Part shown: positions 136 through 64,000 of the stretch, piece by piece
How positions within the stretch are numbered: position 1 is the stretch's first letter
How the letters are laid out: the number at the start of each line of letters is the position of its first letter
Source of the DNA: Bilabrum cf. latius
Lineage: Eukaryota
NCBI GenBank assembly: GCA_965178125.1
Contig: OZ237738.1
Span: 1,116,001 to 1,180,000, forward strand
Direction: 5' to 3'
DNA: 64,000 nucleotides
Notes under the pieces: generated by a model
What the model saw: only the letters and a program-made list of their open reading frames with translations
The model's database searches: none
Told to the model about the DNA's origin: nothing
Position numbers and translations under genes: made by a program

Positions 136-2217
136 TCACGAGCTCGGCAGCGGCCCCCATTTCTAGTTGAACTGAGCCAGGCGGCTCTCCACCTGCTGCC
201 TGTAGCCTGGGCCGTTTGGCGAGAACACGATCATTCTAGCCACTCCGCTGCCTTGGGCCGGGAAGCTGACCTAGTCCAGCTGCAGCAAGTCTGCCCCGTG
301 CACCCCCTTGCCCGGAAGCAAGGCCCACTCACTCTGATCCAGGGGGCGCACGGTCGCATTCACGAGCTCGAAAGCGTCCCAGGCATCTCCACCCCGAGCA
401 CTTGCTCCGCCCTGTGCGAGCATGGCCGGGGGAACAGACACGTTGACGGCCGGCAGTAGGTGCGCCTGCATGTCCCAATGGTAGTCCTGCTGCAGAGCGC
501 ACAAAAGGTCCGAGTAGTTCCCGTTCTGCTTCAGATTGATCAGGGTCACCAGCAGCGCCTCGTCGTTCCACAGTGCGCTCGCGATCGAATCGGGGTCCCC
601 CCCGGTTGACACCTGGGCAAGGGGCCACGCCGCTCCCTGCGTTCCCAGGCGGGCCGAATGCAGCGTGCCAGAGGTGCGCACCAGCTCTCGTACGGAGGCG
701 AGCTGTCGGTTGAAGCGGCCCATGGCCAGCCAGGACGCGGGCCAGAACTGCATCTCGGAGATTTGTGACTGAAAGAGCATCATCCCCTTCCCTCCCGCCG
801 CGATCACGCTCATGAGCTGAACGGATAGTTCCGCTGGGTCTGGCTGCCGGTGGAATCGGATCGGTCCTATCTTCCCATCCCAACCGTCGTCGAACGCCTG
901 GGAGTAGAGCCAGGCGGGCCAGGGTGCCTGGTTCGCGGTAGTGGTACGAAGGTAATCGAAGCTGCCACGGAGCCAGAAGGGGCTCGCCCATTCGGTCACG
1001 TGGGGAGCACACGCGGCCACGTAAAAGTCCATCCCTTTGTAGTCCACCGTGTGGCCCCACAACCCCTGGTGCCGGTTGCGAGAGCCCCCCACGTAGGTGC
1101 CAAACCCAGGGTACGCCTTCCAGCTGGTCTGCGAGTGGGCGGCGTCTGGCCGTACATTGTGCGAGTGGTCGTCGGACTCGTCGCCCTGGAAGATGCCAGC
1201 GATCCTGCTGGTGTTCTTCAGCGCTGAAATATCGATCGATCCATCTGCCAGGGCCCAGAAATCGTACTGCGGCGCAAGGGTGCCGGCGATGATCGACCCG
1301 TTCGGGCCCCCGCACTTTGACGCGGATCCCTACGACACGAGGAAGGTATCGATGCCGTATTTCCGGTGAAGTTTGTAGTTCGTGTCGTTGACGGTGGGAA
1401 AGGGGCACTCGCTGGACTTCTGCCAAGCCTCGATGGGAAAAAACTCGAGCAGTGCTCGCCCGCCCGCCACAGCCTCGCCGGATGTCGTGTTCGCGAGCAC
1501 CGTCCACAGGTCCCCACGCTAAAGTGGGCTTGATAGTTTTATAATCCAGAGAGTTTGCTGCCCTGGCGCAAGCGTTCGGCTTGCAGCCGGGACCTGCGAC
1601 AGCACGTCCACCCCGTTCACGTGCAAGCTCTGCAGCTGCGAGTAGCTGGTGACCGTCGAATTCGGCGCCGTGCCGAGGCTGGCGTAGATCAATATCTCCC
1701 CACCCTCATTTCGGGTTGTCACATAGTCGATCGAAACAGCTGCATGGGGATCTTGCGGGGCAAGAATCCTGATTTGCGAGCTTGCCAATGTTGTGCCAGA
1801 TGTTGTTTGCAGCTCAATGGATGTCAATGAGCCAAGTTTTGCCACGGTATCCCACACACTTCTACTAGAGTGTAGCGTGACAAGCACTTGATCTCCAGCC
1901 TGCAGCGCCCCCAGCGGCAAAATGTGGAAAAAATCCACCTCCCAAAGCGATGGATCGCTGCTCGAATTAGTCGTGTTAACTGCTGTTCCATTGATAAGAA
2001 GGACCTCTGCCACACCTGCCCCGGTGGCGGAAAGAACCGCTGTGATTCTACCTCCCGTGCTGGGATCCTTGAGGTTTGCTTCCGCGTACTGGTCGTACGG
2101 CAGGTATTGGTCTTTCCGGTACGAGGCAGGCGTGTGCGCTGCCTAGCTGCAACCTGCCGCACATAGAGTCATCGAAACTAGCACTGAGAGCACAGTGCAG
2201 CTATACTTAGTCTGCAT
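136..2217 (-). CDS. Secreted protein of about 693 aa, possibly glycoside-hydrolase-like (TAG=Gln)
   Basis: ATG 2217 to TGA 136-138 in one frame, joining ORFs 1519..2013 and 271..1092 through 5 TAGs (2143, 1519, 1330, 271, 163). Hydrophobic signal peptide MQTKYSCTVLSVLVSMTLCAAGCS*A, many N-x-S/T sequons, aromatic-rich domain with GDESD, DFY and AAGGKGMMLF. Function is inferred only. Confidence 0.75.
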
Positions 2218-2579
2218 CTGACACTGTTCGATGGCACGGCGCACTCAGCCAACTGGAGTTCCACAACAAAAAAAAAAGTTGCTGTTCGAGAGCACGAGAG
2301 AGAGAATAAATATACCTACGTCAAAGCACACGCACCCGAACAGCGACGAGCGCCCTGTAAGGGGAGCTCGCGCTGGATAGACTGGCTCACGCCGCAGTGC
2401 ATTCAAGCTGAGCATGGCCATCCAGAGGGCCTTGCCCCCCTGGATCTACATCCTGGCGGCTTGCCCCAGGCATCGATTCGTGGTGAGCTGTTTAGGTCGG
2501 ACCATGCAGCTCCAGCTCAACAAGGGAAGTTTACTTGTCTGTGTAGCTTATCATCATCCTGATTCTTATGAAACCCAGC

Positions 2580-3854
2580 TCAGCAAACCGGCCCGAACTC
2601 GCCCTGGAAGAGGCTAGAGTGCGCCGCGTGTCCCCTCTCCATCCTGAGGGAGAGCTCCGTCGTGTCCATCCACGTCACGGCGTCCTCCAGCGGTGCCACT
2701 GCCTCCTTGGCTGACTGGTCAATATCAAACCCAAGTTCCTGGAGGTAGCCATTCAGGATCTCGTTTCTGTGCTTCTTATTGCTGGAGGTCACATGCGAGA
2801 TCCAGCTGTGATTCCCGGGCTGGGGAAACTTGGGATACGTCTTCGACTGCAGCTGGGGCATGTCGAGCCGAGTCCCAGCCCTGGAAAAATTGGGCCTGTA
2901 ATCTGCCATTCTATACTGGATCAAGCCTCGGAGGAACAGGGCTTGTTGTTCGAAGGCGCCGCCTCCACCTCTCTGCGTCACGTTCCACCACAGCCTAGTG
3001 TGGTCTCTCGCCCGCTCCCCCCCACGCATCACGAACAGTCCTGCGCATGGAATGCGGAACCGGCTCGGCATGTCTGCGATCACCAAGATGTCTTGATCGT
3101 CTCTCAGGGCAGCCAGAGACCTTTGCAGAGGCCAGCTGTGGTTGCGAAATACCGCGTCCGTGTCGATGTGTACGATCCAATCATAGCGGTGCGCAAAGTG
3201 CCAGACCACGGGCAGTTTGGCCCAAGACCCGGCTCGGGCGTGATTCTAGCTCCACTCGTACGTAACCGGATAGGCCTTGCAGTCCGGCTCCTCTGTGGCC
3301 CCGTCAGCCTTGAGAAGGTGCTTGCGCATTTTCGACCACAGGGCCGGAACCACATACTTGAAGTCATAGCCGTACTTCTTGGCGTACATGTGGCTTGCAA
3401 TTGCAGACTTCACGTGGTAGTTGGTGTCTGCTAGCGACACGCCCTCCTTAACCTTGCGAGGATCGCGCGTGTCGACGCTCAGTATGAGCACTTTGCCCTC
3501 GGCCCCGGGAGGGCAGACGCAGCACTCGCGGTGGTACCATTGTTTGGATTTTGTATTTAGGCTCTCACTGAACACGTAAGGATGACCAGGCTTTGTCCAG
3601 AGATCCACAAGGTCCTGCGGCGGCTCGTCCTTCATGGACTCCTCTTCCCACCGGCTTGCCCGCTCGCTGGGATATTCCTTGGGCGGTTCATCTTCTCCGC
3701 ACTGCTCACAGCAATTACTCCTTCCTGTGGGCAATGTGGAATGGTGCTTTGCAGCGCTGTAATCACTTGCCAAATCATCCGGTTGCTCTGCATCGATTTC
3801 GATTGACACGGCAATGAATACTGCTGCCCAGCATGCTATCGTTGGACGTGTCAT
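2580..3854 (-). CDS. Glycosyltransferase, GT34 (GMA12/MNN10-like) family, 424 aa
   Basis: ATG 3854 to TGA 2580. One TAG (3246-3248) joins ORFs 3246..3860 and 2580..3209. N-terminal hydrophobic segment, YAKKYGYDF, WAKL..V, YDWIVHIDTDA (DxD), AGLFVMR and FEQQAL motifs. Confidence 0.8.
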
Positions 3855-4076
3855 GGCCAATGCACTGAGGAAATAAAATCAAAATGTTTTGATTGTCCTG
3901 CTGTTGACCTGCAGATCTGCGATATGATGGGAATCTTGGTTCAAGAGCACACATCGCAAGCGGTCCGTTGGCTTGGTCGCACCTTCCCGGTTGCGACCGC
4001 CACGAAGAAGATTAAAACCGCCAGCACAAGAACGACGTGCAGGCTAGATGTTTTATAAAGCAAAATATAGATATAA

Positions 4077-7000
4077 TCACAGAGGCGCCGCGGCCTCCTC
4101 GTACAGCCTGGCAGCATCCACTGCCTCCTTACGGCCGATGCTCACGCACCCTTCTTCCTCCAGCTCACCACTCGCACCCACTCGCAGCCACCGCTGCAAC
4201 TCGGCCTGGGAACTATCCATAGCAGCGGTGCATTGGCTACTGGCTCGCGCTGTTGACGGCGTGCATTGACGGCTTGCCCGGATGCCAGTCCTAGGCCCGC
4301 TCGCACCGTCACGCGCGCTCTCTTGCTCAGTATCAGCGGTATCAGCACCAGCACCAGCACCAGCACCAGCACCAGCATCAGCACCAGCACCGGCACCGGC
4401 ACCAGCACCAGCAACAGCACCAGCACCAGTACCAGCACCAGCGACGTCTTCGCGCGTGCCAGTATCATCGGCTACACGAAGCTCACCAGGACGATCCGTC
4501 GAGGTCGCCCACGCGCCGCTGGCAGGCAGCACCCAAGCCCGCCGCAAGCTGTCTGCCTCCGACAGTGCCCCTGTGGCTGCGCGGCGCCGGTTCCGCTCAG
4601 CCCCCGCAAGTGCATGCAGCCTCATCCTAGCGAGCTCGCGCCCGGGATCCACGCCGATCGACGTGAAATACCGAGCCAGGGCATGGCCGTCCTGCTCAAG
4701 CATGCCCTCATAGCCGCCTCCCGGGGCACCGGCGCCGCTGGGCACTCGACAAGCACCACCTACCTGCCGCGAGGCCTATACCCCTGCCTGCACCTGCATC
4801 CCGTAGTGTTCCCTGAGCCGATCCAGCATACCCCGTGCGCCTGAGCTGTGCAAGATCCCCGGTCCCACACCAGCCACCACGGACGTATCTTCGGCCCCGA
4901 GGAACAAAGTGCTGCGCCCGCTGGAAAACTCAACGGACACCTCATCGTTGGTGCTCCAGCAAACCGTTTGCGTGGCACCGTAGGCGTCCGAATACAGCGG
5001 GCGGCCGTTCCGTTTCAATCTTTCTACCGACCTGCTGCCCCCACTGCCCGCAGCGCCATTCGCACCAGCACCTGCACTGCCCCCTTGGGGGCTGCGGGCA
5101 GCTTCCCTTGGGCTGGTTCTCACCTTGCTGTGTGTTCCCTGGGCCTCCGGTCGCCAGCAGACGGACGGGTCCGGCACTGATCCTAGACGGGATCCGATCC
5201 CGGGAGACCGAAGCACCACTCCCTGAAACCGCACGCCCTCGTCCAGTCCACCCAGATCTCTCTGACCGCGCACGAAGAGCGTATGGCTGCACTGCCCTGA
5301 CTCACCCGACGCACTGTCTGATCCTCCGCTGCTGCTTCTGGCCGGACTGTTCTGGCCCAGGATCTGCGCCCTTATCCTTGAGTCGGCCTCGGCCGCCCGT
5401 TGGCTGGCCCACAGCAGAGCATCATCCGCTGGCGCGTGTCCCAGCGCACGCAGAGCGGCAATGCACGCCGCCTGCGATGCCGCGTCTCTATCTTGAGCGG
5501 CCCGCAGCAGCAGTCCCTCGGCTCCCACCAAGGCCCGGACGCTCGCGAGGAAGTCGGCATTCGTTGTAGTCTCCGGTTCAGTGGAGTGCTGCCCAACAGC
5601 GGCACTCGACCTAGCGGCACAGGCAGCTTCGTCGCCGCCTGGCTGCGCCGCAGACCCAGATACGTCCAGGAGGCGAGGTGCCATTACTGCCGCGGCTGCT
5701 AGCACAAGGACACGTGCCTCGTGACTGCCGCGCGCCAGGCCCCTCAGGCGGCGCAGAAATCCCAGGAGACGGGCGCGGCCTTCCTGGAGAGTCGTCTCGC
5801 TCGATTCCGAATGGCTGCTAGGCGCATCCTAACGAGTGCCAACTCCACCACCCGTGCCACCGCCAGCTCCAGAGGCTGCCGTACCAGTCTTTGTGGCGTC
5901 TCCCTCTCCCCCCGCCCTGTCCGCCTGCCGCTTCCGCCTGTTCCTGCTGCTGGACAGCCCGTCGTCGTCCTCAAATCCCTCGATGACACCGTCCATTTCG
6001 AGGTCCCTATGTCCGCCTTGTCGCTCAATGGACGCGCCTAGTCCAGCTGTCTCCGCCCCGCTCGCAGGATCCAGCCCTCCGTCTTGACCATCGGCTCCGC
6101 TGCCAGTCCTAGCACGATGCGGCTTGATGCGGAGAATGCGCCTACCTGGGAGCATGCTGGGGCCTCCGTCACTAGCTTCCTGAGAGGCGGCACCTGGTGC
6201 TTTCAACGCTCCGTCATTCGATCCCAACGCACCCGATTGGTCAGTTGCTCGCCCGTTCGATTGCTGCGTCGGCCCGTTCACCTACTAGCTATGCTTGCCC
6301 TCACGGCTGCTGGAGGACGACGCCCGTGCTCGCCCGGGGAGTCGCAGGAGACTTCCGATCGATGCGGTCGACGGCACGCGCGGGACACCCCCGGTCACGC
6401 TGCCGGCTCCCCCTTCTGCTGTGCTCCCGCCCGCGGACCCAACCGAGCTGGACCTACCCTTTTGTCTGAGTCCACCTGCAGATACTGCCGCAACAACCGC
6501 ATCCTCGACGATAGCTGCTTCAATCGCAAATTTCTCGCCGTACGATGCATCAGAAAACAAAGACGAAGCGTCGGATTCGCCGCTTGAGCCGCTCCAAGGG
6601 TCCATCTCGTGCCTTGAACCCACCGCACCGTCTGCCTCATAACTAGCAGCTGCGCCGCCCGCTGCACCACCAGCGGCAGATGCTTCCGCCCCAGAAGCGT
6701 CGCCTATACCATCGAGATCGTCCATGACGCCGTTGCTCTCCTAGGCGCCGTCCTGCGGTAAGGACATGCGTGCGAGCGTCGCGTGCAATGAATCACTCCC
6801 ATTCCAGGCGAGTTCGGGTCGCCCCGCAGCGGCTGCGTTCGTTCTGCCTCTCCCTGCAGTATCATCCCCACTATCAAACTTCGCGCCATAGCTCTAGAAG
6901 GCATCGCATGCGCTACTAGCGGCAGCTCCAGAGAGAGTGGTGACGATGTCTGCCCTGAGAATCGGCGAGCTGGCGCCGCCGCTGCCATCGCCGTCAATTG

Positions 7001-8177
7001 CTCTCAGCAGGAGCAGCACACCCCCAGCATCGACCGTGCCAGTTGTTGCCTTGCCATTCGTCTCATGCTTGCTACTGCTGCTGCTGCCGCCCTTACCTGT
7101 CCCCGCCATCCCTTCAATCTCGGCCTCTGGATTCATACCAGATATTGCCGCGACTTCGATCCCTGTGCTCTCATCCCCAATTTTGGAAGAGATAGTCGAG
7201 GCGCTGTGTCCCTCCGCTCCGTCTCCGGCGCCTTCCGACTGTCCTGTCCCTTCACCAGCAGCAGACTCCGCTGCACCGCCATCGACATGACCGCCAGCTC
7301 CCATGCCATTCACCAAGTGGCTAGATGGAGTGCCAGTGGATGATGGCGAATCATTGGCACCGATAGGCGCCGAGCCTCGGCGTTTCGACTGCTGGCCGTC
7401 TCTTCGCGGGGAGGCGAGCACTAGCGATGTGGCAGCTGCCCAGGTGGAGCTGCTCGGTTTGCTTGACTAAGGCGATCGCCACACTTTGTCCCCATCTCGA
7501 TTCCAATGAAGCCTAGTTGACTCTGCTGCGCGCGCTAGGCCAACCCCGACGACGGAGAGGCTGCCTGAGCCAATGCTTGCACTGCCTGGCACTAGCTGGC
7601 GTCCCGGGTCCTGCTCTTCTTCATCTTCCTCGGGTCGATCCATGCCTCCTGTCATCAGTATTCTATCAAGTGTGTCAAGCAAGGCTTCGACACTGTCTGA
7701 TCTTATCTGCCGCTCCTCGTCTTCCGGCAAATCATCGTGATGCTCGCGCAGCTACAGGGCAAGCAAAGCTGCAACTGGCATGGACCCATGGCTACTTGCT
7801 GCCTCCACAACGATCGGCAAGCAACTAAGCATATATTGATGATCTCCACCTCTTGCTTCAGATTGCACGGTTGACACGACATCGCAGGCTTGGACACGGA
7901 TGCCCTACTGTCGCATGGCTGATGCTGTGTTTTGCATTCGCACAAGGGTACTCTTCTAGTACACCAGTCTAGCAATACTCTCTATCTATTCAACGGTTTG
8001 GCCAGCGTCCTACATCATTTGCAGTATTAGCAAAGCTTCAGCTGCATCGCTCGACTTGCTTTGGTTTGGATCGCTGCTTGTTGAGGAGATGTCCGCAGCC
8101 TCAGTCGCTTCAGAGGGCGCCGCAGGCCCATCATCAACAGGCTAAATGGTGAGGGGGGCGCCTGATGCTTCTACCAT
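4077..8177 (-). CDS. Large hypothetical low-complexity protein, about 1366 aa
   Basis: ATG 8177 to TGA 4077-4079 in one frame with 13 TAGs (including tandem TAG TAG at 6282-6287) and no TAA or TGA. Joins ORFs 7467..7730, 6894..7421, 6285..6725, 5829..6281, 4776..5705 and 4077..4745. No family recognised. Confidence 0.75.
4344..4442. repeat. Hexamer repeat (GCACCA)n encoding a Gly-Ala tract on the minus strand
   Basis: About 16 imperfect gcacca units; translates as AGAGTGAGAVAGAGAGAG within the 4077..8177 gene. Confidence 0.9.
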
Positions 8178-8347
8178 CTCAATTTTGTGGGCGAATCTGT
8201 GTTTCGCGTAGGCGGTTGCAACCACCACGTGCTTTCAAGAAGAAGATTTAAACTCCAGAACACGCCCCCGGGGCACGCGAAGGAGAAGCTTTGCATATCT
8301 TAGCTCTGTACAACCATCTAAATATGTGCAAGTGCGCTAGCACGAAT

Positions 8348-9631
8348 TCACGTCTCCTCCACCCCGATCCCAGCCACTTTGAGGCCCTGCCCTTGCAGCA
8401 CATCGAACAGCGAGAGTGTCACGGCAGCAGTCGGGGCTGCTCGCATCATCGCCACGCCCAGCCCACGATAGAACACCCCGATGCCCTCCTTCCTCAGGCT
8501 GGAGCTCACGCAATGGCGCACGCTCGAATACATGCCGGACTGTATCCTGGTTTTCACCACCTCGATGGGATACACGAAGGCCCAGGACGACACTCCCGTC
8601 ATGGACCCTGCCAGCACCCGGGCCCACAGCGGCAGCCGTCCAACGTCCCGCTCCGAGTCGCCGCTACTGAACCTGCCACCCCCACCCAAATGCCCAGCCA
8701 CACCCCCCACTGCGCCCTTCGCCGGTTGCAACCGCCCGTGGCTCCCCAGGTACTTGGCCAGCACCAGCTTCAGCGCGCCGTAGCAAGCGTAGTAGTATCC
8801 CCTGCCCAGCACCTCGGCCCCGAGGTGCGGACCGTACGCGCGATAGAATCCGCCTAGCCCCTGCTGCCTCCAAATACGCCCCGCAGCCCGGGCGGTGTCC
8901 TTCAGCGTCAAGCCAGATCCGGACGAGGGCGCTGAACTGCCGGCTCCCGAACCCACGCCGGCCCCGGAGCCTGCAGAAGTAGCTTGCGACCTTGCGCTGG
9001 ATGCCAAATTGCCGGCAGCTTCCCTGCTGGGCCTCCCGTTGACTGAGTGCTTCAGTCCCCGCATGCCGTCGGTCTGCATGGCTATCTTTACGCAGGTTGC
9101 TGGGCAGGACACGATCGAGCAAGCGGCACCCGCCGAGACACCCGCAAATAAAAGTCTTCCTATATCATCTAATGTGATTCCAGTTTGCGCTGCGCGCAGG
9201 ATGCCGAGTGGGGCTGCAGCATCGGTACAAGACACGTCATACTTTGCTCTGCTTGATGCAGCAGGGCTCGGTAATCCGAGCCTTTGGCGTACGTTTGGCC
9301 AAGCTCGCTTGCAAGCTTCGTTAGTAGAAAAGCCTACCATTGTGGTGATGCTAATTGTAACGAGTGGTGGGATTATTCCACGCCAAAGGCCTGCAATGCC
9401 ACCCGACTATGCCCGCGTCGCATCTCGGAAAGCCTACCACGCACCAGTGTGTCCACGCCTAGCTGAGCCAGTCGAACCTGCTACATGCGATCTACTTGCA
9501 ATCATCCTAACCCTAATCGTGTCGAGGGGATGACCGACGAGCGCTCCGGCTGTTCCAGCCAAACTTCCAGCCGCAAGACTCACAGCAATTCGAATCTGCT
9601 CTACATTCCACTGTTTTCTCGTCTCAGACAT
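8348..9631 (-). CDS. Mitochondrial carrier family (SLC25) protein, about 427 aa
   Basis: ATG 9631 to TGA 8348. Three carrier repeats: HPLDTIRVRM, CPATCVKIAMQ, YPIEVVKTRIQ, with GLWRG, GFYRA and EGIGVFYRG. Repeat 1 is complete only if TAGs at 9434 and 9407 are read through (GAW*AFRDATRA*SGGIAGLWRG). Confidence 0.9.
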
Positions 9632-9822
9632 ATCAATCAAACCCTTAACGCAATGATAACCAAAACAGTCGGTTAATAATGCGATAGTGGTTATTTTCTC
9701 CGTCAAAATAGAAAATCCGGAACAAATCAATGGTAACGTGTAAATATGCATTATTACCGACGGCGGATTCGGAAACGATAGTGTGGATCCGTCACTGCCG
9801 AATGATCAGAGCAAGGCGCACC
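9632..9822. promoter_or_regulatory. Probable bidirectional promoter (carrier / GLO1)
   Basis: About 190 bp AT-rich gap between divergent start codons. Confidence 0.5.
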
Positions 9823-13815: not shown

Positions 13816-13967
13816 GCATAGGCGCCGCCTTTTTGTTTCCCCGCTAGACTCTAGACCGTTCCTCCGTTCCCGTGCAATGTAATGGTTCCGGTTTCTCGCG
13901 TTCCTGAACTAGACTTTATGCTGAGATCATTAATTGCATAGCCGGACGTGTAATTTTAGAATAAAAG

Positions 13968-16076: not shown

Positions 16077-16115
16077 TCCTGCGGACAGTCGAGGGAGTCG
16101 GCGTCCCAGCTAGGA

Positions 16116-17003: not shown

Positions 17004-17335
17004 TATAAAGCAGATCGAGTTAGCTTAGAACACAGGGTCGGGCCAGTACCGAATCTTTGGGCGGGATTAGCGAGCTACCCAACACTCTACAGCTATTACA
17101 GGTATGATACCGCGAAACAGATGTCACAGACAGTTACTCAAAACGTACCAGCATGTTCACGCGGTATTCCTCTCATGAATGGTCATTGATACTGTATATT
17201 AACCAACCAGATACTACCATTATACCACACGAGTGCATAACCAACTGGATTCGTTTTCTGAGTAGCGTGCAGTTACCAAAAGTGGGTCTCGGCGGCGACA
17301 AAACTCGTGCACATTGGATCGCCAGGCCGCTAGGC

Positions 17336-29715: not shown

Positions 29716-29929
29716 AACTCAAGTTTAAGAACTCAGCATGGAGAAATAGAACTGGGTAGATATGGCAGAGTGGAAGATATCTCCGCTAATTCGTTCGATA
29801 CAACTAGACGGCGGTATCGCAAGATTGGATGGTGCCACTGGCAGTGGCGCCCATTTCAGGTCGCAACTGGTCGCAAAGCAGCACTTCGCTTGAGAGGAAA
29901 TCCAGGCAAGTACAGCAGAGCAGGCAGAA

Positions 29930-53388: not shown

Positions 53389-56300
53389 ATGCCACAAATC
53401 ATCGACGCTCGGATTCTGGAAAGGCTCCGAACACATGAGCTCTCAACAGTGGAATGTCGAGAAATGTACGATATGGTGTTGGACGGGAGAATCAACTTTG
53501 ATGAGACGGTAGAGCTCGACCAGGTGAGTGCATGCACTGAAGCTGCAACTGCAACTGCACCCATTCATGGGAATAGCACCCAATTTCAACCAACTTGATT
53601 CCATTTCATGCGTGCAGCCAGACAAGAGGGTAGTTAAATCGTTTGTGCATGCTTGTGGCGCACACGGTATCCAACACAGTGTGAGACTAGAAATTCTGAG
53701 GCTACTGTTTGCGAGCAGAGTGTTGCGATACGGCCCGCCACTGATGCACCGTATGCTTGATATCGCAGGACGGCCAAACGATGCTACATATAGCAGCAGC
53801 AGTCAGCCAGATCACTCTTGTGGAAGCAGTCCTGGCCACGGGTGCAGATGCGAACTACAAGAGCACTGTGAGCAACCTGGTTGGATAGCACCCTTCGTGG
53901 CGATTGGAAGTCATTTAATTGGTAATTTTCTACTCGCATAAGGATATTATAATTGTATTATAGCCCTTTCGCACCCTGCAGGGAGGTGACACCCCTCTGC
54001 ATATTGCCCTCAGAGCCAACCAGAAGCACCCCTCTGCGTCATCGAGGGTCGTGAGCATGCTGCTAGGAGCTGGTGCCTCCCCTCTCGAGCCAAATGGTGT
54101 AAGCTACGAATAACTAAGCTTGCTATATATTTTTGTGCTTTGATAGCGGTGCATTACTTCGCTGGTGCCAGCTTGAAAATCGGTAGCCGGGATCGCTGTC
54201 CGTCCGCCCAATGGCTCGCTATCATCAAGACCTCTCTTGAGATGTCCCCTCTACATGCTAAGCCCCACCTTAGCAGCGTCATCGATTCCTGTGATTTCTT
54301 CTTCGCAGGCTGGCGAGACCCCTCTTGAGTTGGCAAACCGCATGCACCTCAGCGAGCTCGCTGCAATGCTCGAAACAATGGTGCATGAGCACCCACAAAA
54401 ATCCCGTACCGCTGCGAGTGCCTGGTCCGGGCCCTCCAACACCTCGGGAAAACCACCTTCCGGCTGGGGCCCAGGCCCAGGCTGGGGCCTAGACGACCGA
54501 GGTGCAACCGGTGATTCGCCTGCTCCACATGTTGAGAGCGCTGGCAAGCCAAAACAGACCATCCTGGAAGCGTATGCAGCTGGCGACACCGAAGTGGCTC
54601 GCAGCCTATTCAAAAACGAGGGTAGCATGCGGAAGCAAGTCAATGACTTGGGCCAAGTGAGTCTCATAGAACAATTAGCAGTTGGAATGAAGCTGGCTGC
54701 TTGGCGGACATGGTCAGGCGCACGAGAGCGACTCCGGGTCGTCGGTCGTCTACATCGAGCCGTTCCATCAACCACTATACATGCGCATGGCAAAGACTGT
54801 TCTATCCCGCAGTATGACTGGACACTCCTGCATTTCGCGGCTCGGGCTGGGCATGTTGAGGAAGCCGAGCAGCTGCTGTCGGCTGGGTGCGACGTCAATG
54901 CGCAGTCTGTGGTGAGCGACGTGGCTACATGTGCTGATGCAGTCTGTTGCACCGCACCCTTCTCTTAACGAGGCACAACTCCCTGTTGTCATCCGCCGTT
55001 GACTAGACCGAACATATATTACACTGTGGCACCTCCATTCGCCACATCGCAGTTCGGGGAGACTGCCCTGCTGGTGGCATGCTAGGCTTGGCAACGACGG
55101 CGGGACATGATCTGTCTCCTGCTCCAACACGGTGCAAATGCAGCTCTTGCAACATCCGTGAGGCGGTACTCGTTCTGTTGGCTGCACGTAGCTTCTCAAT
55201 AAACTTATGTGGTCGCGAAAAGTAACATTGCAGCATTCCAATCGCTCCGGTCTGCGTCCACGAATCCCTGCCATTCACCGCAGGCAGGCGTGCTCCCATT
55301 GCACTACGCCCACAAAATCATAAATGACGCTGGTGGTTGGTCCGATAACAAACCCACGGACAAGGACGGGGCATGCGTCGCGATGCTCATCGCTGCGGCT
55401 CCAGGGCTCCATCCCGACACAAAGGTGAGAGAAGGTGGCAACTGCCAGTGCCACTCGCCGATGAAAACATGTAAACGAGTGCTCATGATTTGCAAGCGAA
55501 GTGTGCTTGTCGTGAGGTGGTGTGACGGGTGCTCTTGTCTTGCTTTGCTGTCCTGAAAACTCGAACGCAGGATCCCGACGGTCTCACACCACTTCAGCTA
55601 TGCATTATGAACCACAACATGCCAGCCGTCCGGAGCCTCGTTAAGGCGGGTGCGCGATTGCGGGATGCAAATGGACAGCCAGTCAGGGCCGTGAGTCGAA
55701 GGTTTGCGCTGTGCACTGCAAGGCTAGGTTCGCAAGACTGGCCATTCGACCTTGTCGTTTCCCTCCCCCCCGACGGACCGGTCGTCGTCTCAAACAGGTA
55801 GCAATGCCCCACAATCAAGGCCTTATACCGCAGAATGGCACGACACTGATGCATTTTGCAGCCCGTCACAAGTGCATCAAGACCATTCAGCACCTGCTGG
55901 GAAACAAAGTACAATCGACAGCCTATGACGATGTGAGTAAGAGCCAGGTATGTGTAGCTCGGGCAAGCATCAGACCGTAGTTGATGGCACGGTTGCACGC
56001 GTGCATGCCCAGATCTCAATTTGCAGGACCAACGCCTACCCATCCACATCGCTGCCGAGTACAATGACGACAACTCGATCGTCTGCCTGCTCAGGCACAT
56101 GCCCTTCACCACATCCCGCCTGATGATCAAGCACGACGGGCACGCGGGGCGTATCAAGCAAGCAATGATGAAGAAAGACTTCCGTCTGCGCGGTGACCAG
56201 CTGCTGCTGCACCGCCGCGCCCATCGCGCCAGAGAAGATGCCAAGAGGGTGTTCAAGGCCGCGGCAGAGGGCCGCCCGATGGAGCTCGAGAAGCGGTTGA

Positions 56301-57838
56301 AGTTCGGTGCACTGGCTGGCGGTCTGGAGATTCGCGGGGCACTGCACGAAACACCTGAACTGCTACAGGAGCTATCCAAGGTGGTGTCAAGTTGGGAAAA
56401 GACAGTTATTGCGCGGGACAAGTCGTGCTGGTCGACAGACGAGTCCTCGGCGTGGTCGGGAGCAGAGCAAGCAGAGAAAAGTTCGATACGGCCTGCATTA
56501 ACAGCAACAGGTGATACCCCGGCGTGGCCTGCATCAAGCACACCAGATGCTGCCCCGGCGTGGCCCGCATCAAGCACACCAGATGCTGCCCCGGCGTGGC
56601 CCGCATCAACAGCAACAGGTGATACCCTGGCGTGGCCTGCATCAAGCACACCAGATGCTGCCCCGGCGTGGCCCGCATCAAGCACACCAGATGCTGCCCC
56701 GGCGTGGCCCGCATCAAGCACACCAGATGCTGCCCCGGCGTGGCCCGCATCAACACCAACAGGTGATACCCTGGCGTGGCCTGCATCAAGCACACCAGAT
56801 GCTGCCCCGGCGTGGCCCGCATCAAGCACACCAGATGCTGCCCCGGCGTGGCCCGCATCAACAGCAACAGGTGATACCCTGGCGTGGCCTGCATCAAGCA
56901 CACCAGATGCTGCCCCGGCGTGGCCTGCATCAACACCAACAGGTGATACCCCGGCGTGGCCTGCATCAAGCACACCAGATGCTGCCCCGGCGTGGCCTGC
57001 ATCAACACCAACAGATGCTGCCCTAGCGTGGCCAGGATCAAGCACACCAGATGCTGCCCCGGCGTGGCCCGCATCAACCACACCAGACTCAACCCCGGCT
57101 TTGCCCGCAGCATCGGCCAACGTAGCTGCACCAGAGATGGACGTCGTGTCATCTCCTGCGCGTGACTTGCCCGCAGGCGAGACCACCGAGTTGGAGCGAG
57201 ACCAGCCCAAGACCGAAACCACTGGCAGTGTACTACGAATCCTGCCTGATGCCAGCGGGGCAAACCCGATTGTCTGCGGCCCGATCATGGCAGCTGCTGT
57301 AGGTGGCCATGATGAGTGCATCCGAGTTATTTTGAACCATCTGCACAGAAGGCCTAACAAAAATGGGTGCGCAGTCGGGACCAACGCTATCGCGTAGTCT
57401 GCAATTCGAGTACACGCCGCGGTTGAGGCACAGGCACTCGAGTTGCCACCATCTCGATTGAGACACGACCAAGATTAGAGTATATCCTTGGAGGTGGTCA
57501 AAGTGACTCTCAGCGAGTTCCCAGTTCCCAAGGCATGCCCAAACAGCTGTCAGCACGGGAGGCGCCCGCTAGAGCAGATGGTTGAAATCGCTAAGTGGTA
57601 CTGCGCGGCACCAAGCCAAGTCTAGCCTCGCTTGAAGGAGTGGAGGCCAGAGCAACGGCGTTAGGGCGTGGTTCGTACTAGTAATGGGACTAGCCGACGA
57701 GAGACGACTTTTCGCGTTTGGCGAAGGAGGAAGACTGTACGTCAACAGAGACACAGACGCACTCTACGTCAGCAATCTGACGATGACACCGCCACCGGTG
57801 GTGAAATCTTCCGGATGCCATCAATGTCAGCGTATTGA
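53389..57838 (+). CDS. Ankyrin-repeat protein B, 11 exons, tandem paralog of A
   Basis: Exons 53389-53523, 53618-53680, 53769-53867, 53982-54098, 54309-54656, 54813-54911, 55053-55157, 55284-55424, 55571-55690, 55834-55932, 56027-57838. Exon-for-exon homologous to A. TAGs at 55083, 57395, 57476, 57623, 57662; ends TGA. Confidence 0.82.
56519..57094 (+). repeat. Coding minisatellite: 16 x 36 bp encoding PAWPASSTPDAA and variants
   Basis: Unit ccggcgtggccYgcatcaagcacaccagatgctgcc, with variants ending TATGDT or TPTGDT; lies in frame within the last exon of ankyrin gene B. Confidence 0.95.
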
Positions 57839-58015: not shown

Positions 58016-61000
58016 TTACTTCTTCGAAGCTTTCTTCACCTTCTTCTCCTTCTTGGATTTCTTTTCCTTCCTATCCTTCTTGTCCTTCTTTTCTTTTTTG
58101 CCACTGGGACCGCTACTAGGTTCGACGGCAGGAACTTGGCTGACACCGGCTGACGGCCCAATGCCATGGGTGAGTGCAAGTGCACCTGCCAATTCTGCTT
58201 CATCACCATCGCCATTGCTTCCGCCGGCACCTGCGACTCCTTCCTCTTCGACATCAGCTGAGCCGTTGCACACAGCAGAAAGAACCGCGTCCATCTCGCC
58301 CCGATGGCTCGTCCACAAGCTGCTAGCGCTAGCAACTACATCAGTGCTCGCTCCAGATACTGCTAGCAGATCAAGAGGAGGCGCATCCCACGCGCGGACC
58401 CGCCCCCCTTCCTCCGCTTCAACCAGCGGCCGTAGCGACCGAAGACCCTGCTCGTAGGCAGGCACCAGCGACTCCCACGCCCGAGGACTCGCGTCGATCC
58501 GCAGCATCGGCTTAGCTCCTCGCGCGATCGCCTCGTCTTGTTCCCTGGCACGACGGGCCATTCGGACCGCCCGCCTGGCATCTACCGCGGCTGCCCCGGC
58601 TGTCTCCTACTCATTGGCGCTGCTGCCCGCCGCCCGGTCGGCTGCCTCAGCTGCCGCCTCCTCAGCTTCGTCCACGTCCATGGCAGCACCATCGGCACTC
58701 CTGCCCACTGTGCTCAGCAGCACGTATTCGCCTGCCATGGCACGACCTCCGAGAAACCTCCTCATCTCCATGGCAGAGCACAAGGTCAGCGCCTCGCCGG
58801 CGCGGCGCGCCCTGGCGGTCCTACCCACCCGATGGACGTAGGCCTGCGCCGCGGCCGGCGGGTCGTACTGGATTACCGCGTCGAGCTTCGGCATGTCAAG
58901 ACCACGAGCGGCAGCGTCGGTGCACACTAGGACGGGACACGCAGCAAAGCCTGCCGCGGCCAGCCGCAGCAGCTTCTGTCTTGTTCCCTAGGGCATTCCC
59001 GACGAGTACTCGAAGACGGACTGCTCGGCACTACCCGAAGCACCTGGTGCGGACTTGTTAGCCGTTGCTTCACCCGTCTCTGCGGCGTCAGGATCCCAAT
59101 TCAGGCCGTCTTCTTCACTAATATCAGCCTCATCGGCGCTATCTTGCATATCAGCCTGTCCGCTGCTGCTGCTGCTCGGCCCACCCAGTGCCTTGCCTAC
59201 ATGTGTGCCTTCCATGGGGACTGCCGAACTATCGACGGCGGGACTCGCACGGGCAGGCGGGGGCACCTGCATGAGCTACAGCAGGCGAGTGAGACGATGT
59301 GCGCCATCCACAGACCCAGCAAAGACCAGCGCCTGCTTGCCCAGCTTCCACAGCCGAAGCAGCTCCAGGGCAAGCAGCAGCGGCTTCTCGGCCGCCTTGC
59401 ATACTGCCACGGACTCCCGCAGCTTCCTAGGAACCCGACTCAGCGTGGTGACAGTGCCAGCCGCCAGACCCGCACCAGAATCACCGTCCTGCATGTACGA
59501 AGGCGGGGGGACGACCATCACTTCGCCCACTCCCAGAGCGGCCATCCTCATCGGGTCGCTGGTCATCGTTGCGCTGCACAGGACCCTGATGAGTCCGGGT
59601 GGGCCCGCGGCTCGCTAGGCAGCGGCTTCTGCAGCGGATGAGGAAGCAGAAGAAGATGAAGAGGAGCCTGCGCCGCTGCTTGGGCCCCTGCTCCACCGCA
59701 TGTCATGGCCAAAGAGGCCAGCCGGCAGACCGAGAGAGGCCGCCTTGCCACCCACCCTCGAGGTGTCTGACCTGGCGTACCTGAACCCCGCCGCGTTGCT
59801 CGAACCACCGAGACCGAACACGCTCTCCTCGTCTGCACTGCCGTGCGATGCATGCTAGCAGCTCGCAGAGGCAGGCATTCTCCTGAGCGCTTCCCGAAGC
59901 CTGGCCAGCCAGCCCGTGCGGATTGACCCAGACGATCCTAGCAGCCTGTCGGCCTCGTCCAGCACGAGGAACTGGAGGTGCTCTAGCGTGAAACCAGGCG
60001 TTTCTTCCAGGTGGTCCACCAACCTGCCTGGGGTGCACACCAGAATGTCGGGAGGCGAGCCGGCGAACGGCACCAGCTCGCCCTCACCGTCCACCGCAGC
60101 ACCATCGTCCTGGCTGGACGGCTAGTCCCCTGCACTCGTCACGATTGGCCCTTCGATAAGCCCAAGAGCCAGCTAAGCAGCCACAGACACCCCCGCCAGC
60201 GACTCGGCACCGCCGGACTTGGCCAGCAGCGAACGTTCCTTGGCGAAGTCCGACTGCCCCACGGCAGCGGTGACCCGCAGGGACGTGCCCTTGCACAGAG
60301 TGCGGAACACGCGGTGCACCTGCACGGCCAGGTCTCTGGTGGGAAGTATGACGAGTGCCCTCAGCCTCGGCACAGTCCTGCCCAGCAGCCCCTGAACAAT
60401 CGGCAGCGCGAACGCGAGCGTCTTTCCGCTACCAGTGGGCGCGACCAGACAGAGGGTCCGAACGCCTGGGTCCATGGACCGATGCGCGTGCATGAGAGCG
60501 GGTACCCCATGGGACTGCACGGGGAACAAGGGCGCTTCCGCGATGAGTTCTGCGGCGTTGCGGCACACTCGCTCATGAAGGCCGAACTGCTTCAGGGCCT
60601 ATACCCCCGCCTTGACCTCTGAGAGGCGAGATACCATAGAGCGAGGAGTCGCGACTGATTCTGCGAGCTTTGGGAGTGCTGTGTACTTTCGGAGCGGCGT
60701 TAGCACCGAAGAGGCGAGCTGCGCTTGCTGCAACGCGGCGGCGGCGTAGTCGACAGTTGCCGACGCACCTCTGCCATCCTGGCCCAGGGCGCCTTGTTTA
60801 ATCAAACCGCGGCGAGTGGCCGCATTAAGATCAACGGATGTTCGAAGGGCGGAGCCGATCGCAGCAACAGCAGTGAGTGCTGCAGCGGACTCGATCGCAG
60901 CTCGCTTTTTCTGCGGTTCATCCTCGTCGGGCTCGGCGATGGCTCCCGCGGAGCGACTCCCAGCCGTTGAATCGCCTTCATCGATATCACTACGACCAAT

Positions 61001-61153
61001 TTCTGCTCGGGATCGTTTGCGGGCCGATACTTTGGCGGCAAGCTTGGACAGCAACGTAGACTGGGCCCCGGAGCCTTCGCCCTGGGGAGAAGCTACCTCG
61101 GGCTCCTGCTCCGACGCTGGAGTGTTTCCATCAAAACGATCAACTGAAAACAT
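58016..61153 (-). CDS. DDX51: DEAD-box RNA helicase DDX51/Dbp6, 1045 aa
   Basis: ATG 61153 (MFSVDRFDG) to TAA 58016. Motifs [59 protein letters not shown] in order across 8 in-frame TAGs (60599, 60173, 60122, 59855, 59615, 59276, 58988, 58607). Lys-rich KKE/D tail. Confidence 0.95.
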
Positions 61154-61282
61154 AGTTGGCGACAGTGACTCGCCAAATTGTCTGTAAAATGAGCACACAA
61201 AATGTTCCTTCGGTCGGAAGTACCGAACGTTCGGAAGTGGTTCGCTAGAATTGATTGCCTGCGGCCACCTGTCATATTTGGC
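61154..61282. promoter_or_regulatory. Probable bidirectional promoter (DDX51 / TTC12)
   Basis: 129 bp between divergent ATGs; contains the palindrome CCGAACGTTCGG (61223-61234) and two TCGGAAGT copies. Confidence 0.5.
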
Positions 61283-64000
61283 ATGTCATCGTCCGGCCCA
61301 AGTTCTGCTGACGTCAAGAAGGCCGCTGCAGAGTTGGACAAGATCCATGCAGCACGTGGGTAGGCTGTTCCGAGCTCAGATGACATCAATTCGTTCGTAA
61401 GCCGAGCAGATGAGGTAAGTTGCCGTTTCGAACGAAACTGAGAGTGCCTTTGCGTCGAAACTACCGCCTACGGTGTCGCGTCAATGATAGCAATGGTTAA
61501 CTTCAATGCCGCAAGTGCAGGTCGCCCGACAAGTTAAGGCGCTGGCAGACGGCAAGATAGACCCCGAGGATGTCGAGGCTGGCATCACGCAAACTGCCGA
61601 GGAGATGGAAAGAGAGCGGAAAGAGCGCGAGGAGAAAAGGATTGCTGCTGAAAGAAAGCTGCAGGATAAGCTTGCCGAGGCGGCAAAGAAAGAGCGGCAG
61701 GAGGAAAGCGAGAGATGGTGGCGATTCGCAAAGTTTCAGTTTAATGACATTGGTGCACCAGGAGCCGCAGACCTCCTGCGCGAAGATCTTGACTGGATCG
61801 TAGAGGCTGAGAAATCTGCTAGAGATTCAGAAGAGGCGGAAGACTCCGCGCATGCAGCTGCAGATGGTCCCAGTTCTGAGAGCAAGCACGGCGGGGCTTC
61901 CAGCGGCGCCGGGGCTGCCGTGGTGGAGGCGCGAACAATCGGCGAATCGGCGCCCATCGACTACACCAAGTGGGACGAGCTTGCGAAGAGGGCAGACGGT
62001 CCCATCTACAAAGAGGATTTCGAGGAGATCGAGCGCCTCAAAGAAGAGGCCAAAGACCGCCAGTTCGAGGAGAGCAATCCAGAGTTCGTGGCGAACTTTC
62101 TCTCGGACCAGAAGAAGAGGGAAGAGACGCGGAAGAAACGAGCAGACGACGCAGAGCGGCTCAAGAAGCAGGGAACAGAGGCCTACAAGGAGGGACGGCT
62201 GGACCACGCCATGGGCTGCTGGCTCGAGTCGGTGCGGCTGGTGCCTTTCCAGGAGCAGGTGCTAACCAACGTCGCACAGCTTTGCATCCGCATGGGCAAA
62301 CCGGAGGAAGCCCTTGAGTTCGCCCGGCGCGCCATCTTCATCGCTCCGGGCAATCCCAAGGCCCTCTTCCGCCGCGCCACTGCCCGACGCGTACTCAAGG
62401 ACGTGCATGGGTGGGCCGCGGACATGAAGCGCGCTGCGGAGCGCGCTCCAAAGGACCTTAAGCTGTCCTCGCAGGCCCAACAGGCTGCTGAGTTATCGGC
62501 ACAGCTGCGCAGAGCCGAAATCCTCGACCATCTAGTGGCTGGCACCTCACTTGGCAAGACTGCTAGATCAGGATCTGGATCGGGATCGGGCAGCGGCGTC
62601 GCAACGGGTGGGGGCTCTGGTGGTCTGAGCCCTGCAGTTGTGGAGCTGCTGCGCGAAACGAGCGAGGCAATCCACGGCTTGCCCGGCTTTGTGGTAGGGA
62701 GGGGGGATGAACAGCCGGGCGACACGACATAGGATGCTGCGACCGGGGCCACGCCATCCGGATCGGTGGCACCCTCTGGCGGCAGCAGCCGCAGTCCTGC
62801 CCGTGGGTCTGCAACAGCAGCTGCGCAGCTCCAGAAGCTAGTCAACTGCGTGCTCTCTGCAAGCATGCAAAGCCAGCAGAGCACAGGAGGTGCGGCACCT
62901 TCGGCAAGCACGGAAGACTCTCCACGCGTGCTGGTGCGAGCACTTTTGCTGCGGACCGGTGCCCTTACTTTCATCGCGAGAGGCCTGGTACGACTGCTTG
63001 AGTCAAGCGCGGGCCAGCCAGGCACGGCGAGCGCGCAATCACGGGAAGCTGTGCGCGAGCTGGACCTGCCTGGTCTCGCGCTGTCCTCCACTGGAGCCAC
63101 CAAGTCTGCCTTCAACCTGCTGACAGCATCCGTCTCTGGCACCGCCAGCTCCTGCAGGGAACTATTGCAGAACCAGGGAGTACTAGGCGCATGCGTGCTT
63201 TTCCTCACTCACCTGAGCGGGCTGAAGTCGCCCTCGGAGTCCTGCACCGCAGCGGATATTGCGGCCAGGGGGATCGCGAGCGGGAAGTCCCCCGCTGGCC
63301 CGGGAGTCGAGGGACTGGTGAAGAAGAAGGACTCGGTCAGGTGGGCTGTCGCTCGCCATGCCCTCCGATTCCTGCGGACCGCGTGCGGGGCAGAGTCGCC
63401 GGAGCAGGACGCGTCTGCCATGCTGTGCCTTTCGGAGGTGCTAGTCGGCTCGCAAGTCCTGGAGGCAAGCACTGCATCAGAAAAGGTAGCCGCATCGAAA
63501 CCAAGGCCGAGCGTCTTCGCGCCGCTGGAAGAGCGCGTGAAAGGTAGTGGGCCATCGGCTGGAAGCGCTGCTGCTTCTGCAGCCTCACGGAAAGACTCTG
63601 AAAGTGAGGGTGGTGAGCTAGGCCCCCGTGTGCGGCATGGGGGGTTGCTAGCACCTGCAGCTGCGCGGTAGTTGTCCAAGGCAGCAGGACGTGGCAAGAC
63701 TGCTATCGCGCCTCAAATCGGCATCGCAAAGGTCATCTCGGCAGCAGCGGGTGCGTTTGGCCCGGGGCCGATTGACATTGCGCTCATGACACGATAGATG
63801 GTACAAGGAACTCGCGGGGGGGTGGACAAAGGCAGCGTAGATGGCTCGCTGGGGGCAGAAATGCAAAGGCACGGACAGGTGGTGCTGGGCGGTATGGAGG
63901 CATTGGAGCACGCTTGCGAGCTACTATCGGCGGCATGCACGCCTCGTGTTCGCAGGGCTCTCCCGGCCCCCGTCCGTCAAGCCATGGATGCATCCGGATT
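61283..64000 (+). CDS. TTC12: TTC12-like TPR protein (ciliary dynein assembly), truncated by the window edge
   Basis: Exon 1 61283-61414, intron 61415-61520, exon 2 from 61521. N-terminal DDINSFVSRADEV, FLSDQKKREE..AERLKKQGTEAY and three TPRs, followed by a helical region. TAGs at 61361, 62730, 63669, 63795. Confidence 0.75.

Follow-up and report, generated by a model that had tools for sequence, protein, structure and literature searches.

In-frame UAG codons, most likely read as glutamine, in nuclear genes of a GC-rich, intron-bearing eukaryote

Gene content of the window and its in-frame TAGs

The window, that is, the whole 64-kb stretch of DNA analyzed here, has a G+C content of 60% and carries the genes listed below (TAG counts are in-frame). 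Four studies provide public DNA data from the organism, along with data that look like RNA.

139..2244, minus strand: secreted-looking 702-aa protein, no Pfam family; 5 TAG; stop TGA
2583..3878, minus strand: GT34-like glycosyltransferase, weak match (PF05637 below cut-off); 1 TAG
4080..8234, minus strand: low-complexity 1385-aa protein; 13 TAG
8351..9805, minus strand: mitochondrial carrier, SLC25 (PF00153, 9.2e-47); TAG at 9434 and 9407; stop TGA
9802..11303, plus strand: two-domain glyoxalase I gene, 3 exons, all without TAG; stop TGA
11636..13815, plus strand: Ariadne-type RBR ubiquitin ligase (IBR, RING, Ariadne); 1 TAG, at 12071; stop TGA
13965..16076, plus strand: RNI-type LRR protein; 9 TAG; stop TGA
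16116..17024, minus strand: C2H2-like zinc-finger protein, convergent with the LRR gene; 4 TAG; stop TGA
17108..23668, plus strand: 2186-aa protein, no Pfam family; 12 TAG; stop TGA
24002..26266, plus strand: 754-aa protein; 4 TAG
26464..29718, minus strand: 1084-aa protein starting MGCG, paralogue of 34983..38489; 4 TAG
29930..33415, minus strand: CEP104 (cilium tip protein), last large exon (PF21040, 5e-21; PF21038); 1 TAG
34983..38489, plus strand: 1168-aa paralogue of 26464..29718; 11 TAG, 7 of them after the first ATG
38605..43770, minus strand: 1721-aa protein, no Pfam family; 6 TAG; stop TGA
44036..47461, minus strand: VPS16 (PF04841, PF04840); 2 TAG; stop TGA
55985..57838, plus strand: ankyrin/tandem-repeat protein, last exon; 4 TAG; stop TGA
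58016..61285, minus strand: DDX51/DBP6 DEAD-box helicase; 8 TAG; stop TAA after a Lys-rich tail
61488..63998, plus strand: TPR protein that continues beyond the end of the window; 3 TAG downstream of the first ATG

Pfam matches (Mito_carr, IBR/RING with Ariadne, LRR_6, CEP104 N and TOG, Vps16 N and C, DEAD with Helicase_C, and TPR) confirmed the DDX51, VPS16, CEP104, Ariadne and SLC25 genes that a preliminary description of this DNA had named as bearing TAG; the name DDX51/DBP6 itself comes from the source names of the helicase homology matches. The protein encoded at 139..2244 has 286 homologues at E<=0.001, and the C-terminal part of the LRR protein is held in common with the ankyrin genes. 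No tRNA genes and no eRF1 gene were found in the 64-kb window. Standard gene callers split these genes into fragments, so that standard-code annotation of this organism and its relatives would be badly truncated.

Over 19 stop-to-stop frame segments of the window we counted 92 TAGs in 16754 codons, and 87 in 16543 codons from the first ATG onward, with at least one TAG in 18 of 21 segments, housekeeping genes included. The preliminary count of about 97 TAGs in 18 of 19 genes was thus right about in-frame TAGs and slightly off in its numbers. A few of the counted TAGs sit in 5' leaders or introns, such as the one at codon 12 in the 11570 frame and the one in segment 9990-10607. Eight frames of at least 1000 aa are obtained when TAG is read as sense, versus one under the standard code, with TAA as sense or with TGA as sense. 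We also applied a stop-blind frame caller to 300-nt bins, in which 73 of 213 bins (7227 codons) were called coding. These contained 30 in-frame TAGs, no TAA and 8 TGAs, and all eight TGAs lie at or beyond frame ends (11301, 11352, 11549, 11567 and 23666-23684), which leaves no internal TGA in the 7227 codons. Frame lengths and this test together bear out the earlier claim that TAGs lie within intact genes. Given that TGA outnumbers TAG over all plus-strand frames (757 versus 483), base composition does not account for the surplus of TAG in frame. TAG makes up about 0.5% of codons throughout gene bodies and would account for about 13% of glutamine codons.

The residue at TAG sites

The metagenome contigs L001 and L002 are syntenic with the window at 56-84% protein identity and hold an orthologue of the SLC25 carrier gene. 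They contain nine in-frame TAGs, six of which stand opposite a window glutamine (CAG in five cases, CAA in one), all six in conserved stretches; the remaining three are in variable regions and face M, V and A. The L002 orthologue of glyoxalase I, for example, has a TAG opposite a window CAA. Gene-caller fragments from relatives of 79-94% identity have six internal ends, which correspond to a window TAG (four) or a CAG glutamine codon (two) and to no other residue, the stop codon at these ends being taken as TAG by inference from the protein fragments. For the 2186-aa protein, the relatives' fragments end at TAG835, TAG1809 and TAG2150 and have Q at TAG793, the last of these in a relative of 94% identity. 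TAG305 of the 139..2244 gene faces Q at 80% identity, and one TAG of 26464..29718 is opposite a Q of its paralogue. In these comparisons, TAG sites are conserved in close relatives, and TAG alternates with CAG or CAA between relatives.

It is unlikely, in our estimation, that UAG specifies some other amino acid, the next best being Lys, Ser and Glu, in the manner of Leu in exLh or Ser in Scotinosphaera. At the nine window TAG sites for which a relative's residue was available, S (three), K (two), L (one) and P (one) appear beside Q (two), and TAG is not enriched next to other glutamine codons in the window (9 of 344 neighbors; the corresponding figures are 108 of 1642 for CAG codons and 2031 of 60192 for the remaining codons). 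However, the S, K and L residues are each one base from TAG and fall in stretches of 50-71% local identity, while the six conserved sites of L001 and L002 and the two fragment ends on CAG all point to glutamine. In an alignment with 120 distant homologues of DDX51, three TAG columns are well aligned, with the compositions Q46/E46, P36/Q30 and E17/Q17, and column 670 holds Q or E in 92 of the 120 sequences.

We calculated the likelihood of each residue from BLOSUM62 conditional probabilities. Gln ranked first, with a margin of 6.8 nats for the TAGs of the relatives and of 11.7 nats for the pooled data (K at -11.7, E at -12.7). For the window sites with the DDX51 columns its lead was just 1.4 nats over Lys and 1.8 over Ser. 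The preliminary description had proposed asking whether TAG columns match another residue or align at random; pooled, they favor Gln clearly, as do the relatives, although from the window's own TAGs alone the preference is weak. Leucine is excluded as the meaning of UAG, the conserved sites being Q and column 670 having no L among the residues listed; serine was disfavored by the pooled likelihood. Judged by these alignments, UAG most likely encodes glutamine.

Termination and spliced messages

Among the 14 frames whose next codon was read, 12 are followed by TGA and two by TAA, and the genes on L001 and L002 end in TGA too. UGA is therefore still a terminator, and the main one. UAA behaves as a terminator as well, on the small sample of two frame ends and its absence from frames in one 64-kb window. 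The preliminary claim that both codons still stop translation and that neither occurs internally agrees with these results.

We considered whether UAG might be ambiguous by position, encoding Gln inside genes and acting as a stop near some 3' ends, as in Condylostoma and karyorelicts. In five of 17 frames a TAG lies 8-36 codons before the TGA or TAA end, one relative's fragment stops at the final TAG in the 2186-aa frame, and the 8-codon tail of 139..2244 alone scores -1.95. Against this, a TAG rate of 0.55% per codon would by chance give about three such frames among the 17. For the 96 codons that follow the final TAG in the five frames, the coding scores sum to 11.6, comparable with interior draws (10.1 +/- 7.0); post-stop draws gave -11.3 +/- 5.4, and none of 5000 reached the observed sum. 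The motif KWGPL behind TAG694 of 139..2244 is also conserved in a relative carrying Ser in place of this TAG, and TAGs are distributed across gene bodies (KS test versus a uniform distribution, p=0.08). Termination at UAG was thus not observed for these five tails, which are coding in aggregate, one being conserved, and we regard such a code as quite improbable. The earlier statement that no gene terminates at TAG holds for the tails taken together; the 8-codon tail by itself does not bear it out.

Still less probable, in our view, is that both UAR codons mean Gln, as in Amoeboaphelidium and many ciliates, with UAA simply too rare to be seen in a GC-rich 64-kb sample. The G+C content of 60% and the fact that only two frames end in TAA would be in keeping with this. 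However, the stop-blind bins hold no TAA beside their 30 TAGs, when the CAA/CAG ratio of 0.29 predicts about nine, and no TAA in the window joins two coding-looking stretches. Downstream of the terminal TAA, the per-codon score is -0.34 for DDX51 and -0.11 for 51665-52624, as in other post-stop sequence and unlike coding sequence; the sequence around the TAA at 34980, upstream of the 34983..38489 frame, is likewise not coding-looking. The window therefore does not display the pattern of NCBI table 6, in which UAA stands in frame beside UAG.

Contigs of runs X5 and X6, which come from two further studies, skip four GT..AG introns; we take these runs to be RNA from this feature, none being recorded as RNA. 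The glyoxalase I gene has introns at 9910-10124 and 10606-10728 and an intact spliced frame of 387 aa. In the Ariadne gene, introns at 12673-12801 and 12870-12991 flank a 68-nt micro-exon, with the joints present in both X5 and X6, and the spliced frame of 642 aa retains one TAG and is open only when this is read through. Five X5 contigs aligned to genes without any difference and cover 23 in-frame TAGs, including all nine of the LRR gene; spliced X6 contigs cover 13. Both carrier TAGs lie within contigs of X5 and X6, the X6 contig (8705-9683) having one difference, outside the rows listed for it. Apart from this difference, the bases are identical in contigs from three studies. Because the TAGs are unchanged in spliced contigs, assembly error and splicing-out, both raised in the preliminary description, are excluded, and so is editing, except for the two TAGs in X6. 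With X5 and X6 taken as RNA-type, this supports UAG as a sense codon in mature message. That the TAGs are untranslated (through assembly or sequencing error, pseudogenes, C-to-U style editing reversed in RNA, or splicing) is barely conceivable, given that we found no point in its favor and that, besides the spliced contigs, TAG positions are conserved in relatives and housekeeping genes are among the 18 of 21 segments affected.

Decoding, lineage and comparison with known codes

We propose, with a probability of about 0.78, that the window derives from the nuclear genome of a GC-rich eukaryote with introns, in which UAG is a sense codon, most likely for Gln, with UGA as the main stop and UAA as a further one. 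This corresponds to the pattern of NCBI table 15, of which we found UAG in conserved genes, in spliced message and opposite Gln, together with UGA and UAA stops. The same assignment had been put forward in the preliminary description and is now supported by frames, spliced contigs, relatives and the pooled likelihood. UAG would be decoded by a tRNA-Gln with anticodon CUA, one mutation from tRNA-Gln(CUG), and eRF1 would have lost recognition of UAG while retaining that of UAA and UGA.

In a single-gene DDX51 tree, the window gene is placed beside stramenopile sequences and apart from fungal ones. This position, the G+C content and the GT..AG introns fit the earlier suggestion of a source that is neither ciliate nor fornicate, and we found no ciliate signal in the window. 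The code variant is known, but the lineage with UAG as Gln appears to be new and not previously described. We lean slightly towards an independent origin in a poorly sampled, GC-rich and possibly stramenopile-related clade that prefers UGA to UAA as terminator. Under this reading, no earlier nuclear code change would be known from that part of the eukaryote tree, and at least three diverged members would share the change: the window species, a relative of about 90% DNA identity and relatives of 56-84% protein identity. Because the placement of the lineage rests on one gene tree, so does the independent origin.

If the assignment is true, it would add a further, independent UAG-only case, from a non-ciliate lineage that is GC-rich, has introns and stops mainly at UGA, and would provide a natural replicate for how eRF1 tells UAG from UAA. 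It would also bear on the question of whether the choice of the captured stop codon is steered by G+C content.

The closest counterpart in the cited accounts is Iotanema spirale (Fornicata), in whose nuclear code, as in the window, UAG alone is reassigned, to Gln, while UAA and UGA remain stops (PMC5304391). However, Iotanema is described there as an anaerobic metamonad with UAA as its primary terminator, whereas UGA ends 12 of 14 frames here, G+C is 60% and DDX51 lies near stramenopile sequences. The same table 15 pattern is reported for the ciliates Hartmannula sinica, Trochilia petrani and Protocruzia tuzeti, which have UAG in 78-84% of their genes, compared with 18 of 21 segments here (PMC11687900). 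According to that report, these ciliates prefer UAA as stop and use UAG for 18.5-31.8% of Gln codons, whereas the window prefers UGA and has TAG at 13%. Amoeboaphelidium protococcarum, as cited in PMC5304391 and PMC6299283, is likewise a non-ciliate eukaryote with a stop-to-Gln change, but both UAG and UAA are reassigned in it; the window has no in-frame TAA, and its DDX51 stands apart from fungi. UAG is decoupled from UAA, as here, in the rhizarian exLh and the TARA phyllopharyngean MAGs (Leu) and in Scotinosphaera (Ser), although the residue differs (PMC5304391, PMC11687900). In Condylostoma, karyorelicts and Blastocrithidia a stop codon is, as here, read as sense inside genes; from what is described of them, the same codon also terminates, whereas in the window TGA or TAA ends every frame and the late tails score as coding. 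Reassignment of UAG without UAA is rare: for Gln these sources name Iotanema and the three ciliates, and for Leu and Ser they name a few more.

In-frame TAG codons and frame ends

The 64-kb window has a G+C content of 53-66% per 4-kb bin and approximately 60% overall. Read from stop to stop under the standard code, it holds one frame of at least 1000 aa, and the number remains one when either TAA or TGA is taken as sense. When TAG is taken as sense, there are eight such frames, the longest being 2186, 1721 and 1385 aa. The frames opened in this way carry the Pfam domains Mito_carr (9.2e-47), IBR/RING and Ariadne, LRR_6, CEP104 N-terminal and TOG, Vps16 N and C, DEAD and Helicase_C, and TPR; the helicase matches are named DDX51/DBP6 in their source records. 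The genes and frames named below are as follows.

139-2244 (-), 702-aa frame
8351-9805 (-), SLC25 carrier
9802-11303, two-domain glyoxalase I gene with two introns and no TAG in its exons
11636-13815 (+), Ariadne
17108-23668 (+), 2186-aa frame
38605-43770 (-), 1721-aa gene
58016-61285 (-), DDX51

By our count, the 19 frame segments (16754 codons) hold 92 TAGs, or 87 in 16543 codons when counting from the first ATG (18 of 21 segments affected); a few of them fall in leaders or introns. The preliminary description came close, with about 97 TAGs in 18 of 19 genes, and its list of housekeeping genes lacked the glyoxalase I gene. When compared with genome and viral contigs, the glyoxalase exon matched only glyoxalases (38-47%), in prokaryote records and one contig of a viral collection. 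The prokaryote relatives of the second domain, 38-47% identical, are mostly gammaproteobacterial GloA-like genes.

Since these frames are defined by TAA and TGA, we called frames again without using stops, by a codon log-odds model that was trained on four frames left open by the standard code and treated stop codons as neutral. This caller scored 73 of 213 bins (7227 codons) as coding, with 30 in-frame TAGs, eight TGAs, all at or past frame ends, and no TAA in these bins; about nine TAAs would be expected beside 30 TAGs from the CAA/CAG ratio of 0.29. TGA is commoner than TAG over all frames of the plus strand (757 vs 483), so composition does not explain the in-frame TAGs.

Among the frames whose next codon was read, 12 of 14 end at TGA and two at TAA. 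Past the two TAA ends, the next 30 codons have per-codon scores of -0.34 and -0.11, resembling the sequence past other stops (mean -0.138); gene interiors score +0.105. The window has no TAA between two coding-looking stretches, and the sequence upstream of the TAA at 34980 is not coding-like.

We also considered whether UAG serves as both sense codon and stop. A TAG lies 8-36 codons before the frame end in five of 17 frames, when about three are expected by chance. However, the 96 tail codons of these five frames have a summed score of 11.6, against 10.1 +/- 7.0 for interior draws and -11.3 +/- 5.4 for post-stop draws, none of 5000 of which reached 11.6. The 'KWGPL' tail past TAG694 is kept in a relative with Ser at TAG694, and the spread of TAGs along genes gave KS p=0.08 against uniform and p=0.056 against CAG. 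The coding-like tails, the conserved 'KWGPL' and this spread mean that dual use is not supported for the five tails tested.

Several other features of the frames were observed. Two multi-exon ankyrin-repeat paralogues (about 49900-52627 and 54180-57838) have last exons that are approximately 50% identical, and in the second a 12-residue unit (PAWPASSTPDAA-like) is repeated in tandem about 20 times. A frame antisense to this second paralogue (55594-57474) stays open for 626 aa, probably as an artefact of the repeat. Long antisense frames are common in the window, such as 39866-41839 (+; 657 aa) opposite the 1721-aa gene, and look like by-products of high G+C rather than genes. Long Ser/Gly-rich proteins that belong to no Pfam family form a family of their own at 26464-29718, 34983-38489 and perhaps 24002-26266. 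The 26464-29718 copy begins with MGCGVSS, resembling an N-myristoylation site; the 34983 copy has no start and probably has further exons upstream.

TAG codons in spliced contigs

Among the sequencing runs listed, at least eight from four studies match a 9.7-kb stretch wholly or partly. We compared four of them with window positions 8000-24000; the kinds of these runs are guesses, and none is filed as RNA. Run X1 has one 45-kb contig that crosses the whole interval with no differences, and is probably source DNA. Run X8 comes from a roughly 90% identical relative, and the per-site rows listed for it (40 of 1277) are all in 8323-8951. Runs X5 and X6, which belong to two further studies and bear different organism labels, have contigs that skip four GT..AG introns and include the micro-exon between two of them.

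9910-10124, intron of the glyoxalase gene
10606-10728, intron of the glyoxalase gene
12673-12801, intron of the Ariadne gene
12802-12869, 68-nt micro-exon of Ariadne, part of the second RING (NQGCSHMQCG...)
12870-12991, intron of the Ariadne gene

When spliced at the contig joints, both genes yield intact proteins: a glyoxalase of 387 aa, and an Ariadne of 642 aa in which the micro-exon restores the second RING and one TAG remains. The simplest reading is that the X5 and X6 contigs are assembled transcripts, the run kinds being guessed. The five X5 contigs on the compared genes show no differences from the window. The X6 contig at 8705-9683, which covers the carrier's two TAGs, shows one difference, which is not among the rows listed. 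In total, 23 in-frame TAGs are covered by X5 contigs and 13 by X6 contigs, and none is removed by a joint. Because the spliced contigs keep the TAGs, assembly error and splicing-out are excluded at the covered sites. Editing is excluded there as well, except for the carrier's two TAGs in X6, under that unlisted difference. In spliced messages, UAG is shown to be a sense codon that is conserved and in wide use.

The contigs of X1, X5 and X6 with no or one difference in 8000-24000 carry three organism labels from three studies. Either a single species has been filed under several names, or the organism lives together with, or inside, hosts or cultures that bear different labels. At 16074-16118, an LRR gene (+) and a zinc-finger gene (-) converge, their TGA stops separated by only about 40 nt; both genes are spanned by a single contig in X5 (13977-17220) and by another in X6 (14623-17212), and their 3' ends probably overlap. 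In the 2186-aa gene, a short (GCAGGT)-like low-complexity stretch (18254-18297) has many loose contig ends, and the contig depths there add up to between 1150 and 7237 in all four runs; the stretch resembles a coding microsatellite (Ala/Gly runs) that occurs genome-wide.

The amino acid at UAG

A metagenome scan with the carrier yielded two contigs of relatives, L001 and L002 (54-55% G+C), that are syntenic with window 8351-13812, with 56-84% protein identity. Their genes terminate at TGA and contain nine in-frame TAGs. Six of the nine lie in conserved stretches, and all six face a window Gln, encoded by CAG in five cases and CAA in one (x, TAG; relative/window): LASxCIF/LANQIVF, FNAxEKL/FKEQEKQ, VSQxFAF/VSEQFAY, AFDxDRI/AFNQDRI, CWKxHLL/CWGQHVG and KGFSFxQV/KGFSFQQV. 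The remaining three, in variable stretches, face M, V and A. Protein searches also turned up closer relatives, with 79-94% identity, in the form of gene-caller fragments. The six internal ends of these fragments coincide with window TAGs (codon 242 of the 702-aa frame; codons 835, 1809 and 2150 of the 2186-aa frame) or with CAG Gln (codons 353 and 573), and with no other residue; the stops behind these ends are presumably TAG. UAG exchanges with CAG and CAA between relatives.

Residues of relatives opposite window TAGs
TAG793: Q, 94% relative
TAG305: Q, 80% relative, local identity 90%
TAG1609: K, adjoins an indel
TAG34: L, signal-peptide region
TAG658: S, 62% stretch
TAG694: S, 62% stretch
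Carrier, first TAG: K in L001/L002
Carrier, second TAG: S in L001/L002
Ariadne linker TAG: P in L001/L002

Three DDX51 columns with a well-aligned TAG, in an alignment of 120 homologues, read Q46/E46/K11, P36/Q30/A20/S15 and E17/Q17/D14. With BLOSUM62 conditional probabilities as residue likelihoods, Gln was best by 6.8 nats for the relatives' TAGs and by 11.7 nats for the pooled pairs. Because relatives and window have TAG positions in common, a shared code is economical and pooling is reasonable. For the window's own sites and the DDX51 columns, Gln stood just 1.4 nats above Lys and 1.8 above Ser; the case for Gln from the window's own TAG sites alone is weak. TAG is not enriched beside other Gln codons (9/344 neighbours, vs 108/1642 for CAG), which does not help the Gln reading. 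Window paralogues gave one useful pair, with TAG opposite Q, the rest being too diverged or of low complexity. PDB alignments place TAGs at variable, uninformative positions (carrier N, D, E, T, K, R; VPS16 N), as do distant homologues of the 702-aa protein (TAG242 column, A in 37 of 113; TAG305 column, G 17 and W 12 of 117). A Leu meaning is excluded by the conserved sites.

The UAG sense reassignment in the window is real and well supported, and its meaning is most likely Gln, as had been proposed from the sequence. By analogy with established reassignments of stop codons to Gln, UAG would be decoded by a tRNA-Gln(CUA) that arose from tRNA-Gln(CUG), and eRF1 would no longer recognise it.

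Lineage and comparison with known codes

The DDX51 sequence lacks close full-length relatives; its best matches are 26-52% identical over part of the query. Named top matches or cluster members include ochrophyte stramenopiles (Nitzschia, Epithemia, Ectocarpus, Heterococcus, Chaetoceros) and many fungi. We built a FastTree phylogeny from 541 columns and 76 rows chosen from 121 aligned (the query, 21 labelled by name or source, 47 unnamed and seven basidiomycetes). The tree joins the query with 13 environmental proteins, all unnamed (support 0.87), in a group that falls within a clade with stramenopile sequences (0.91) and separate from fungi. Such a position near the stramenopiles, from one long-branched gene, does not amount to a firm placement. 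CEP104 suggests an organism with a cilium, and nothing in the window points to a ciliate or fornicate source. A search of the Atlas with two TAG-free frames returned ankyrin and VPS16 clusters only, with no lineage clue, and the window contains no Rfam families and no tRNA genes.

Passages of PMC5304391 and PMC6299283 cite Amoeboaphelidium as UAR=Gln. As fungal DDX51 matches are frequent, we considered an aphelid source, which is unsupported by the DDX51 tree and by the absence of in-frame TAA. Our literature search, with supplements and subscription journals outside it, gave no match to the organism, nor such a code in a GC-rich lineage that is neither ciliate nor fornicate. Among the codes described in passages of PMC5304391 and PMC11687900, UAG means Leu in a rhizarian and TARA ciliate MAGs and Ser in Scotinosphaera, and it means Gln with UAA kept as a stop in Iotanema spirale, Protocruzia tuzeti, Hartmannula sinica and Trochilia petrani. 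The type of code itself, with UAG as Gln and UAA and UGA as stops (NCBI table 15 pattern), is thus already known. The ciliates with UAG=Gln prefer UAA as stop, according to a passage of PMC11687900, whereas UGA is preferred in the window, and the lineage appears to be new, with several diverged members.
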